Shown here one piece after another: positions 2,229 to 44,373 of a stretch of 64,000 nucleotides of DNA. This stretch comes from Spirochaetota bacterium. Its GTDB lineage: Bacteria > Spirochaetota > GWE2-31-10. A program made the translations under genes and the position numbers. The first letter of the stretch is position 1. Every line of letters starts with the position of its first letter. The notes beneath the pieces are model-generated. The model had not been told where the DNA came from and did not search any database. It saw only the letters and a program-made list of their open reading frames with translations. The stretch is from the NCBI GenBank assembly GCA_045133795.1, contig JBGUUT010000126.1:7943-71942 (forward strand), given 5' to 3'.

Positions 2229-2963
2229 TTAATCATCGATTGCGTTACAAGCGTAGTTGTAAGTAATCTCACGTATCGAAGCGAGATTTGCTCCGCCGCT
2301 GTAGTTCGTTTTGATTTTCACGGTTACGGCTCCGGCAGGTACTGTCGACGGTACACGTGCGATTATTTGGCTCGGTTTGTTTACTGTCAGTCGGCGTGTT
2401 ACTCTGTGTTCTGCTCCCGTAGAGTCCACGATAAAGATTCCTTGATTTTGGTCGGCTTCATCGGTGATTTTGATTTTTTCGCCGTCGATTACGATGTCGT
2501 CGCCGATTGTGATTGTGCCGTCTTTGAGTCCTGTGGCACCGTCAGTAATCGCCGTGATTCGTGCAGAGGCTGATGTAGCTCCCATTACTTTCACAGATAT
2601 TCCGTCAAGTGTGCTTCGTAAATCTGCTGTCGGTACAAGGTCTACCGTGCGTTTGTGAGTAGCTGGGTCGAAGCTCGCTGCTTCATTTTCCCAAACTCCG
2701 CTTACTCTCGGCGTGATTTGCACTAAGCCGTCACGGAAACTTGAGCATTCTTGGATAAATGCTTTTACTGCATTGTCACGCAGGTTAAGAATATTGAGGA
2801 TTGTGTCCTTGCGGTATTCGCTTCGTTCGCTGACGATTCTTTCCGCTACGTCTTCGTTTGTCAATGTAGCACCGTTAAGGTGAACATCGGCGATACAGTC
2901 TTTGTCATTGTCTTTTGTGAGTGCGTTCGGTCGTAAGTAGACCTGCCATTGGTTGTTTGCCAT
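2229..2963 (-). CDS. Bacteroidetes-type HU-family DNA-binding protein (HU-HIG N-terminal domain plus DUF4469/Ig-like C-terminal domain)
   Basis: 244-aa ORF with RBS AAAGGAG. The N-terminus MANNQWQVYLRPNALTKDNDKDCIADVHLNGATLTNEDVAERIV follows the HU-HIG pattern (basic start, N-x-LT-x-D, Y/C-x-A-x-V) and FDPATHKRTVDLVPTADLR follows the DUF4469-like pattern. Local GC is clearly higher (about 48%) than the flanks (about 33%). Confidence 0.55.
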   Translation of the reverse strand: MANNQWQVYLRPNALTKDNDKDCIADVHLNGATLTNEDVAERIVSERSEYRKDTILNILNLRDNAVKAFIQECSSFRDGLVQITPRVSGVWENEAASFDPATHKRTVDLVPTADLRSTLDGISVKVMGATSASARITAITDGATGLKDGTITIGDDIVIDGEKIKITDEADQNQGIFIVDSTGAEHRVTRRLTVNKPSQIIARVPSTVPAGAVTVKIKTNYSGGANLASIREITYNYACNAIDD

Positions 2964-3031
2964 AGTAAATACTCCTTTGATTTCTTCTTTCCTTATGTGT
3001 AGTAAAGGCTGGAAGAAAGCAAAGAGAATGT

Positions 3032-3047
3032 AAAAAAAAAAAAAAAA
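3032..3047. repeat. A16 homopolymeric tract (T16 on the minus strand), 69-84 bp upstream of the 2229..2963 gene start
   Basis: 16 consecutive A residues counted in the sequence. Confidence 0.9.
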
Positions 3048-3226
3048 CTGTCAAATTTATTGATAATATATAGGAGTAAAAACATTTTTTTGGGCGTGCA
3101 GTTGGCTTCTTTTCTCCTCTTTGGCTGCCGGCACGCTCTTTTTAGGAAAACGGAAAGGTGAAAGAGGGAAGATGAGAAATGAGAATGAACTCACCGAGAG
3201 GAGCGTCCTTTTCTCTTGGGAGTTAT

Positions 3227-3518: not shown

Positions 3519-3920
3519 TTAGTTTTGTTGTTCGCCGTTGTAGTCGTTGATTCCGCCGATTTCGATAATATTTGCATATTTTAAATCAATAAGTTTTTGT
3601 GCTGCAATTTTACTGCGGCGACCGCTTCTGCAATAAACAAAGATTTGTTGTTCTTTATTCGGTAAAATCGTTTCACATGTTCGCTCGCTAATATTATCGT
3701 GCGGAAATAAAACTGCACCCGGAATATGACCGGAAGCAAATTCATCTAAGCTGCGAACATCCAGCAAAATATAATCAGAAGATTCTGACATGATTTTTAA
3801 ACCTTCTTCCATCGAAACGGATTGATAAGTAAGATTTTTTTCAGCTTCTTTTTGATTAATACAGTTGAAAAGGAAAGGAACGCACATAAAAATAATCAAA
3901 TATTTAAAGTAATTTCTCAT
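3519..3920 (-). CDS. Rhodanese-like sulfurtransferase domain protein with a signal peptide
   Basis: Rhodanese active-site loop CRSGRRS, a GHIPGA motif and a hydrophobic N-terminus. Confidence 0.8.
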   Translation of the reverse strand: MRNYFKYLIIFMCVPFLFNCINQKEAEKNLTYQSVSMEEGLKIMSESSDYILLDVRSLDEFASGHIPGAVLFPHDNISERTCETILPNKEQQIFVYCRSGRRSKIAAQKLIDLKYANIIEIGGINDYNGEQQN

Positions 3921-4133
3921 GTTGCAAATGTATAGATGAGATTTTGTAATTTATCAATGATAATCACAACTTATTTTTTTCATGGTAAAAACTTTTTTCA
4001 AAAGTCGACAATTAAGAACTTTTTTTTCTTACCGATAAAAGGAAAAGGGAATTTACATTTTACGTAATTTAAATGTAGATGAGACACAGGAGAGCAATTT
4101 TCTTCTGATATTTTTTGCGGCAATGGGCGGGGT

Positions 4134-42283: not shown

Positions 42284-42300
42284 TATCTTTTGTTTGTGAG

Positions 42301-42333
42301 AAAAGGCAGTCCTGTTTTGGACTGCTTTTTTTA
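42301..42333 (+). terminator. Rho-independent terminator after rpmB
   Basis: Stem GCAGTCC/GGACTGC followed by a T7 run. Confidence 0.65.
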
Positions 42334-42474
42334 TTTGTTGGGGCTAAAATGAATACTGGTTATTTTGATTGTTTGTTTAACTTGAAAAGATATTAAATTG
42401 CTTTGTGGGGGAAGAAAATAAAAAAGCTGCTCTAATCAATAGAACAGCTTTTTTATTTTTACTCACATAAAAAA

Positions 42475-42564
42475 TTATTTTTTCTTATGTCTATTCTTTC
42501 TTAATTTTTTCTTTCTTTTGTGTTTTGCAATCTTTGCTCTTTTTTTCTTTTTTACTGATGGCAT
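42475..42564 (-). CDS. 29-aa extremely basic peptide, bS22-like small ribosomal protein candidate
   Basis: Not in the ORF track. Translation is MPSVKKKKRAKIAKHKRKKKLRKNRHKKK. An RBS AAGGA lies 6-10 nt upstream, and an upstream TTGGCA-N17-TATAGT promoter-like element sits at about 42590-42625 on the minus strand. Confidence 0.45.
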   Translation of the reverse strand: MPSVKKKKRAKIAKHKRKKKLRKNRHKKK

Positions 42565-42663
42565 ATCTATTCCTTTTTCTAAGAATTTTGTTTCCAAATA
42601 ATTTTGTACACTATATACTATTTTCAATAAGTTGCCAAACAATTTTTTGCTTTTAGAGTACTT

Positions 42664-43578
42664 TTAAGCTAAAAAGTTATTCACAAGTGATAGAATTTCA
42701 TCTTCTTGATTTGGTGAAAACCAATAGACGTCATCCATTTTTCTAAACCATGTTAATTGTCGCTTGGCATAGTGTCGAGAGTTTTGTTTAATTTTTTCTA
42801 CAGCTTCTTGAAAAGAACATTTTTTTTCAAAATAATCGAGAAACTCAACATAACCGATACCTTTCATTCCCCAGTCATTTCGTGTATATCCCATTTCTAA
42901 AAGCTTTCTAACTTCATTTTCAAGTCCGGCTTGAATCATAATATCAACGCGTTGATTAATTTTTTCGTATAAATCTTCTCGTGAAATATTTAAGCCGATT
43001 TTCAAATAAGAAACATTGTTTAAATTATTACGTTCTTCCTTATAGAAATCAGAAAGTTTACGACCTGTTCCGAAAAATACTTCTAAGCCACGTAATATTC
43101 GTTGAGAATCGTTTTTACTTAATCTGGTAGATAGTTCATAATCTACAAGTTCAAGCATACGAAATATCCATTCTTTATCGCGTTTTAGCAATAATTCTCG
43201 TAAGCGATTTCGTAAAACTTCATCAATTTTAGGAATGTCGACAATTCCGTTTATTAATGTTGAAAAATAAAATCCCGTTCCTCCGACAAGGAACGGAATT
43301 TTATTATGTTTTGCAATAGAAATAATTTTATCTTCACTGAAGCGTTTAAAATCTCCGGCAGTAAAAGGTTCATCTGGATTTACAACATCAATTAAATGAT
43401 GAATAACTCCGTCTTGTTCTTGCGGAAGAATTTTTGCAGTCCCTATGTCCATGTGACGATAAACTTGCATTGAATCTACAGAAATTATTTCCGCATTATT
43501 CTTTTTTGCAAGTTTTAATGATAAGGCTGTTTTCCCAACGCCGGTAGGTCCAAATAAAGCTACAGCTCGATAATTCAC
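42664..43578 (-). CDS. miaA: tRNA dimethylallyltransferase
   Basis: GPTGVGKT P-loop and the length. Confidence 0.9.
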   Translation of the reverse strand: MNYRAVALFGPTGVGKTALSLKLAKKNNAEIISVDSMQVYRHMDIGTAKILPQEQDGVIHHLIDVVNPDEPFTAGDFKRFSEDKIISIAKHNKIPFLVGGTGFYFSTLINGIVDIPKIDEVLRNRLRELLLKRDKEWIFRMLELVDYELSTRLSKNDSQRILRGLEVFFGTGRKLSDFYKEERNNLNNVSYLKIGLNISREDLYEKINQRVDIMIQAGLENEVRKLLEMGYTRNDWGMKGIGYVEFLDYFEKKCSFQEAVEKIKQNSRHYAKRQLTWFRKMDDVYWFSPNQEDEILSLVNNFLA

Positions 43579-43580
43579 TA

Positions 43581-43778
43581 TTATTCTTCTTCTACTCTAT
43601 ATTTTACTTTTCCTAAAAGAACTTGGCGTAAAGCTGCCGGTACGATTTTACCTTTGTGTGTTTTCTTTACTTCTTCGTCTTTTGTTAAATTAATTTGTAT
43701 TGCTCTTTTTATGGCAGCACAAGTTAATTCATATCTGTTTCCTTTGTAATCGATAAGTTCATCTACTGGTACAATCAT
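43581..43778 (-). CDS. rpoZ: DNA-directed RNA polymerase subunit omega
   Basis: MIVPVDELIDYKGNRYELTCAAIKRAIQI and the position downstream of gmk. The start is trimmed to the internal ATG. Confidence 0.7.
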   Translation of the reverse strand: MIVPVDELIDYKGNRYELTCAAIKRAIQINLTKDEEVKKTHKGKIVPAALRQVLLGKVKYRVEEE

Positions 43779-43806
43779 GTAAACTCCTTTATTATAATTT
43801 ATCAAA

Positions 43807-44373
43807 TTATTCAAAAATGTACTTTTGTAATTCACGATATGCATCATCTAAATCTTTATTTATGATTACATAATCGTATTTGTCTTTTTGTGCAATTTCT
43901 CCGATTGCATTTTTTAATCTTCGTTCAATTGCGTCTTGTGATTCAGTGCCTCTTTTTTCTAAGCGGCTTTTTAACACTTCAATATTTTCCGGTGCAATAA
44001 ATAAAAATATTGCAGGGATTTTTGTATTTCTTACGCTGTCGGCACCTTGAACATCAATATCCAATATACAGTTTTTACCGGCTAAAAGAATCTCTTCGAC
44101 TTCAGTTTTTCCGGTTCCGTAATAATTATCATGTACGCACGCCCATTCAAGAAAATCGTTACTTTCAATTTTTTTCTTAAAAGTTTCAGTGTCTGTAAAA
44201 TAATAATCTTTCCCGTGAGTTTCACCGTTTCTAGGATTTCGAGATGTATACGAAACCGAAAAACTTACTTTATCTGGATATTCCTGAAACAGTCGGTGTA
44301 ATAATGTACTTTTACCGACACCGGAAGGACCGGATATGACTACTAATTTACCTTTATTTTTCGTATTACTCAT
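43807..44373 (-). CDS. gmk: Guanylate kinase
   Basis: GPSGVGKST and the GMP-binding region. Confidence 0.9.
   Translation of the reverse strand: MSNTKNKGKLVVISGPSGVGKSTLLHRLFQEYPDKVSFSVSYTSRNPRNGETHGKDYYFTDTETFKKKIESNDFLEWACVHDNYYGTGKTEVEEILLAGKNCILDIDVQGADSVRNTKIPAIFLFIAPENIEVLKSRLEKRGTESQDAIERRLKNAIGEIAQKDKYDYVIINKDLDDAYRELQKYIFE

Follow-up and report, generated by a model that had tools for sequence, protein, structure and literature searches.

What is encoded in the short gap that follows miaA in this spirochaete, and does the small, lysine-rich reading frame found there represent a gene at all? The window, that is, the whole 64,000-nucleotide stretch of DNA that was analyzed, has a G+C content of 32-37%. 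On its minus strand lies a 29-codon ORF (42475..42564; ATG at 42564..42562 and TAA at 42477..42475), which an earlier note had picked out by inspection as a small basic gene resembling that for the ribosomal protein bS22. Its translation, its matches in the PDB, and its codon conservation all bear on the answer. We consider it highly probable (about 0.93) that the ORF is the bS22 gene of an uncultured Treponema-like spirochaete, apparently set up as a separate transcription unit, with binding of the product to the ribosome predicted by homology.

Translation of the minus strand from 42564 to 42475 gives MPSVKKKKRAKIAKHKRKKKLRKNRHKKK followed by a stop, confirming that a small basic ORF is present, although the count of basic residues is 20 of 29 (14 K, 4 R, and 2 H; 69% K/R/H) and not the 21 given previously. 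The calculated mass, 3608.5 Da, agrees with the peptide size of about 3.6 kDa that had been predicted, and the pI is 12.0. When all 424 ATG-started ORFs of 20 to 60 aa, from any of the six frames of the 64-kb window, were compared, this one was the sole extreme outlier in basic content, with a basic fraction of 0.69, compared to 0.48 for the next and a mean of 0.18 (sd 0.09). We also weighed a longer, 55-aa ORF beginning at a TTG (42642) as the actual gene but discarded it; the added N-terminal extension is unconserved, and in relatives it is cut by in-frame stops at differing places, so that the ATG is the start.

A phmmer search against all PDB chains retrieved solely bS22 chains. They comprise three different sequences, each of which aligns over the full length and without gaps. 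The best matches were the Flavobacterium johnsoniae protein (Fjoh_1533; 7JIL chain 5, listed as 7jil_5; E = 1.7e-5) and the Porphyromonas gingivalis protein (9I5V/9I5X; 9i5v_10; E = 3.4e-5), with 21/29 identical residues in each case, followed by that of Borreliella burgdorferi (bb0822; 8FMW chain V, 8fmw_V; E = 7.8e-4), with 19/28. All three chains were modeled into cryo-EM density as bS22 (PMC7797042, PMC12123416, PMC10618245). The 7JIL-type chain carries the double label "S22 / L38" in some entries, which we regard as a naming slip: the 30-aa Fjoh_1533 is bS22, and bL38 is a different protein of 5.6 kDa (PMC7797042). The Flavobacterium and Porphyromonas proteins share with the window peptide the length of 29-30 aa and the HKRKK...NRHKKK core; more generally, its size, its basicity, and its H-K-R-K-K ... 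R-H-K-K core are those of the Bacteroidota/Spirochaetota bS22 proteins, which have 28-33 residues.

Could such a resemblance arise from composition alone? Lysine codons come easily in AT-rich DNA, the window is low in G+C, the ORF itself is A-rich, and HMMER reports large bias terms for the PDB matches, all of which would fit a chance ORF in an A-rich spacer with a purely compositional likeness to bS22. We therefore turn to controls that hold composition constant. Across 5,000 shuffles of the peptide, with Met1 kept in place, identity to the three chains was 7.4-8.1 +/- 1.8, compared to the observed 21, 21, and 19, and not one of the 5,000 reached the observed identity, the observed BLOSUM score, or the observed identity at non-K/R positions. 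A family profile was also built from 26 members, some of them from related loci and others from peptides called as "hypothetical," with the three PDB sequences left out; it matched 7jil_5, 9i5v_10, and 8fmw_V with E values of 6.9e-13, 1.7e-11, and 1.1e-10, respectively. The shuffles together with the gain from the profile show that the match to bS22 is not mere shared composition, and the resemblance put forward in the earlier note is supported. The window peptide retains every one of the 12 columns that are invariant in the 26-member alignment.

Comparison with relatives speaks to the same point. It had been suggested beforehand that conservation of the frame be checked in related genomes, and there the ORF proved to be intact, at the orthologous position, and altered mostly by synonymous changes. 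The peptide is identical in six contigs of the same species. Beyond the species, we worked through MiaA homologues of decreasing identity, inspecting the DNA 3′ of each miaA for a bS22 ORF. One is present after miaA at MiaA identities of 84% (L088/L089), 81% (L090), 77% (L091), 62% (L092), and 52% (L096), and also at 57% (L093) and 53% (L095), in both of which one gene lies between. That intervening gene (2919-3917 in L093 and 2918-3925 in L095) encodes 332-335 aa and has no recorded Pfam match.

Over this 84-52% range of MiaA identity, the peptide differs from that of the window by 0-3 residues. The counts of synonymous/nonsynonymous codon differences from the window in the seven-locus series are 2/0, 3/0, 4/0, 8/0, 11/1, 6/3, and 14/2, giving pN/pS values of 0-0.11, with pS near saturation (0.99) in L096. 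The variable columns of the alignment number 5, 3, and 22 at codon positions 1, 2, and 3. Random single-base changes in this ORF would be synonymous in 17.5% of cases, so that 8 synonymous changes out of 8 would be expected by chance with a probability of about 9e-7. Over the same distances, the flanks of the ORF diverge past alignability. The ORF is a real protein-coding gene under strong purifying selection. The shuffles, the codon pattern, with its synonymous-only divergence and third-position variation next to flanks that become unalignable, and the outlier status among the 424 short ORFs refute a chance origin; the conservation of the peptide in a relative that is high in G+C and encodes it in quite different codons also stands against it, and we attach next to no probability to that reading.

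The ORF was absent from the available flank at three loci: L094, in which the contig ends about 400 nt past miaA; L097 (MiaA identity 48%); and L087. Synteny of miaA and bS22 is thus not universal. At L087, the gene at 2501-2728 encodes an L28 identical to that of the window, with a Bmp-family lipoprotein and an HD-domain protein as neighbors, and neither miaA nor bS22 was found within 2.5 kb of it. Either L087 is another genome with the same L28 or it is a rearranged strain.

We next consider how the gene might be expressed. The ribosome binding site proposed in the earlier note is present, as a Shine-Dalgarno-like AAGGA on the minus strand (42571..42575) 6 nt before the ATG, read from the sequence. 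Purine runs resembling Shine-Dalgarno (SD) sites (AGAGGA, GAGG, AAGG/GGGG, and AAGGAG) occur at similar spacing in L092, L093, L095, L096, and the more distant L077, in each case within an upstream region that is otherwise unalignable, and SD-like runs of this kind are retained in all of the relatives. SD sequences are mostly lacking in Bacteroidota, and in having such a site, the window gene is unlike most genes of that phylum.

Also present, as had been described, is a sigma-70-type promoter-like element, TTGGCA-N17-TATAGT (42610..42638, minus strand), which agrees with the consensus at 10/12 positions and lies about 45 nt 5′ of the ATG. Eight sites of this grade were found in the same 1 kb, compared to 4.1 expected, so the element taken alone is weak evidence. 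It is kept in near relatives, being identical in L083, L088, L090, and L091, and L092 has TTGGCA-N17-TATAAT; we infer that it functions as a promoter. At the other end, about 15 nt past the stop codon, the minus strand contains a hairpin resembling an intrinsic terminator (42415..42459), with a 20-bp stem and flanking A and U runs. Its folding energy is -23.9 kcal/mol (z = -7.27), and none of 200 shuffles reached this stability. A G+C-rich hairpin followed by a T-run is found in the same place, with differing stems, in L083, L088, L090, L091, L092, and L093. To judge from these comparisons, the putative promoter and terminator are either conserved or functionally replaced in relatives. A second hairpin lies on the rpmB side (42299..42332); it has a 14-bp stem and T-runs on both strands and reads as a bidirectional terminator, so that the 190-nt convergent gap holds two separate terminators, at 42299..42332 and 42415-42459.

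The setting of the gene is as follows. Upstream on the same strand is a block consisting of yicC, gmk, rpoZ, and miaA, of which miaA, encoding the tRNA dimethylallyltransferase (42664..43578, minus strand; Pfam IPPT/IPT), is the last and the conserved upstream neighbor of the ORF. Downstream and convergent are rpmB, encoding ribosomal protein L28 (42056..42283, plus strand; Pfam Ribosomal_L28), an aromatic amino acid lyase gene, and then a flagellar rod gene. Exact matches to the proteins of this neighborhood come from metagenome-assembled genomes named "Spirochaetales bacterium," and the corresponding 90% clusters also include "Treponema sp." members, which points to an uncultured Treponema-like spirochaete of the gut or rumen. 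A tRNA scan and an Rfam scan of the 64-kb window gave zero matches, and no rRNA or riboswitch was found in it. Every related locus has the yicC-gmk-rpoZ-miaA block, and rpmB adjoins bS22 in the window lineage only, with other neighbors in more distant relatives. The stable unit is therefore the yicC-gmk-rpoZ-miaA-bS22 block. Gene order breaks directly past the bS22 terminator (42284-42474 in the window and the equivalent positions in L088-L096). The genes found there are those for a response regulator and glycogen phosphorylase in L088, and flgH, with dxs next to it if the locus extends far enough, in L090-L093, L095, and L096. Within the block, the rpoZ ORF of the window (43581-43847, minus strand) encodes 88 aa when read from the ATG at 43847 and then overlaps the end of gmk; public calls give 65 aa, and that shorter start is probably correct.

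A small intergenic ORF flanked by two genes with roles in translation might also be suspected of being a leader peptide, or an upstream ORF, that regulates miaA or rpmB through its own translation. The arrangement does not favor this: the ORF is 3′ and not 5′ of miaA, its own terminator follows at once, and rpmB is on the opposite strand. The downstream neighbor also varies among relatives (rpmB, a response regulator gene, or flgH), and the sequence of the peptide remains constant. Conservation at every residue across phyla is, to our knowledge, not usual for leader peptides. We regard a leader function as extremely improbable.

How far does the association with miaA extend? Among the matches listed in a search of contigs with MiaA, the distant loci (at most 46% identity) were mostly from Lachnospiraceae and Desulfobacterota, and they included L077, a high-G+C metagenome-assembled genome (MAG) labeled "Spirochaetia bacterium" with a MiaA identity of 42%. 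Directly after its miaA, L077 encodes VPCGRKRKRHKIATHKRKKKLRANRHKKKLR, beginning with GTG and preceded by the SD sequence GAAAGGAG, in codons quite unlike those of the window. In B. burgdorferi, bS22 is bb0822, with a GUG start (PMC10618245), and it adjoins miaA, which is bb0821. A bS22 gene next to miaA, in the manner of bb0821/bb0822, is found in the window, in seven more distant relatives (with one extra gene intervening in two), and in L077. Taken together, L077 and the Borrelia pair show that the linkage of miaA and bS22 spans the phylum; apart from the two loci with an intervening gene, bS22 in the spirochaete loci examined lies directly 3′ of miaA. According to a study of Borrelia, the position following miaA, which hfq usually occupies in other bacteria, is without a gene in B. 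burgdorferi.

The Borrelia protein is the closest precedent in the same phylum. Its 19 of 28 identical residues align without gaps, it is likewise highly basic, its gene likewise adjoins miaA, and it too had been left unannotated in the genome, being found by a translated search (PMC10618245). Mass spectrometry in that study did not detect bS22; a peptide such as that of the window is cut to pieces by trypsin. It differs from the window protein in its GUG start and MPCG N terminus, where the window gene has ATG and MPSV, and, compared to Borrelia, a promoter-like element and a strong terminator of its own accompany the window gene. The earlier note had confined the family to Actinobacteria and Bacteroidetes. 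Both of those groups stand, but Spirochaetes were omitted, although the Borrelia bS22 had already been described (PMC10618245); the host here is a spirochaete and neither a Bacteroidete nor an Actinobacterium. The Flavobacterium and Porphyromonas proteins, which are the best matches, belong to another phylum, Bacteroidota, in which the bS22 gene is annotated as encoding a hypothetical protein.

What might the peptide do? In the published structures, bS22 occupies a pocket of the 30S subunit between h44 and h45, together with h2 and h27, and touches 23S rRNA at H68/H70 (PMC10618245, PMC7797042, PMC12123416). Specifically, the Borrelia protein is in the h2/h27/h44/h45 pocket with a contact to H68 (PMC10618245), and the Flavobacterium and Porphyromonas proteins are between h44 and h45, contacting H70 (PMC7797042, PMC12123416). 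Mycobacterial bS22, mitochondrial mS38 (AURKAIP1/Cox24), and eukaryotic eL41 are similar short basic helices in the same pocket (PMC10618245, PMC7797042, PMC12123416). By homology, we imagine the following for the window gene. As a small transcription unit of its own 3′ of miaA, with a candidate promoter, an SD-like site, and a putative terminator, it would give a short transcript from which the 3.6-kDa peptide is translated. The peptide would be a bent alpha-helix, folding only when buried in its rRNA pocket; it would insert into the 30S pocket formed by h2, h27, h44, and h45 of 16S rRNA, beside the decoding center, where it could neutralize the charge of rRNA phosphates, and it may touch 23S rRNA (H68/H70) and so provide an additional intersubunit contact. 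That this organism translates the peptide, that the peptide binds the ribosome, and which pocket it fills there are all predictions by analogy with these better-characterized relatives.

Given that ribosome binding is here predicted by homology, and that few informative positions define the family, one can envision a conserved, bS22-like peptide that is translated but has another job, perhaps in nucleic acid binding or regulation, and is not a stoichiometric component of the ribosome. In line with such a difference, residues 3-4 are Ser-Val in the window lineage, compared to Cys/Ser-Gly in most homologues. The family-invariant H15-K-R-K-K and R25-H-K-K are nevertheless all kept, the top similarity is to proteins seen in ribosomes of two phyla, including another spirochaete, and extreme purifying selection over 29 residues fits tight packing against rRNA. 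We consider this alternative very unlikely, if somewhat less so than a leader peptide or a chance ORF, and favor a ribosomal role as bS22.

That leaves the question of why standard annotation does not recognize the protein. The NCBIfam equivalog model NF047430 (ribo_bS22) matched the window peptide at 12.2 bits (E = 0.15), below its cut-off of 34 bits, and the Pfam model PF08213 (COX24_C, for the C-terminal domain of mS38/AURKAIP1) matched at 18.2 bits (E = 0.0023), below its threshold of 23, along positions 1-29 of the 33 in the model; these matches are weak but end to end. PF08213 matched 16 of the 26 family members at E<=1, with a best value of 3.1e-7. The behavior of known bS22 proteins in the same searches is instructive. 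NF047430 gave no match to the bS22 of F. johnsoniae, P. gingivalis, or Borrelia but scored the Mycobacterium smegmatis protein at 54 bits; PF08213 gave no match to F. johnsoniae or B. burgdorferi bS22 and scored P. gingivalis at 11.7 bits and M. smegmatis at 40.3. Since structure-verified bS22 proteins fail these models and the mycobacterial one passes, the models cover the actinobacterial/mitochondrial branch only, and falling short of their cut-offs does not argue against bS22. Pipelines leave the gene unnamed because the curated models lack this branch; in the NCBIfam and Pfam libraries checked, the Bacteroidota/Spirochaetota branch is without a curated HMM.

Conversely, the 26-member profile, searched against the PDB, did not retrieve the mycobacterial bS22 chain, and according to the supplement of the Borrelia paper, identity to the M. 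smegmatis protein falls to 19% (PMC10618245). What connects the two bS22 branches is the evidence of the published structures, along with intermediate sequences such as P0276 (MGSVIKKRRKKIAKHKRKKRMRADRHKKKKR). A role in aminoglycoside accessibility has been reported for the M. smegmatis protein only (PMC10081302, cited in PMC12123416).

Among the papers searched, none names bS22 together with Treponema, and bS22 in this lineage is a previously unreported member of a known family. Beyond Borrelia, the family now takes in Treponema-like spirochaetes, which adds modestly to an idea of the Borrelia authors, who had already predicted such finds (PMC10618245). Whether bS22 of the Bacteroidota/Spirochaetota type is a general and systematically unannotated ribosome component throughout Spirochaetota, Treponema-like gut lineages among them, and perhaps in further phyla, is a broader proposal that we put forward tentatively and consider rather doubtful as it stands. 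If it were true, spirochaetes would have bS22 anchored behind miaA, where, according to the cited study of Borrelia, other bacteria usually have hfq; the case for regarding bS22, mS38, and eL41 as a single ribosomal protein, ancient and near-universal, would be strengthened; and it would mean that annotation pipelines miss such proteins because no curated model exists for this branch.

The value of the finding is mainly practical: it corrects the annotation of a conserved, probably essential-class ribosomal component and adds its linkage to miaA. An HMM built from an alignment of this bS22 branch would mend annotation in both spirochaetes and Bacteroidota. The expectation that gene callers would miss the ORF was borne out, as no public contig examined carries a correct call. 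A search for related called proteins, with a 40-aa in-frame extension of the peptide as the query, returned 56, none of which bears the name bS22. The JGI record P0225 is a 40-aa version of the peptide with a wrong start, and in two NCBI MAG records, the accessions of MiaA and L28 are consecutive. At two loci, something else has been called in its place. In L095, a 31-aa out-of-frame ORF (MKGEEVRNAFSKEKKKSEDIKAQKKEKIKKE) is annotated over the bS22 locus (3915-4010, plus strand), and in L089, a 101-aa antisense ORF (2912-3217, minus strand) is annotated over bS22, rich in F and L as the mirror of its lysine codons. Each of these two calls is probably a spurious database entry.
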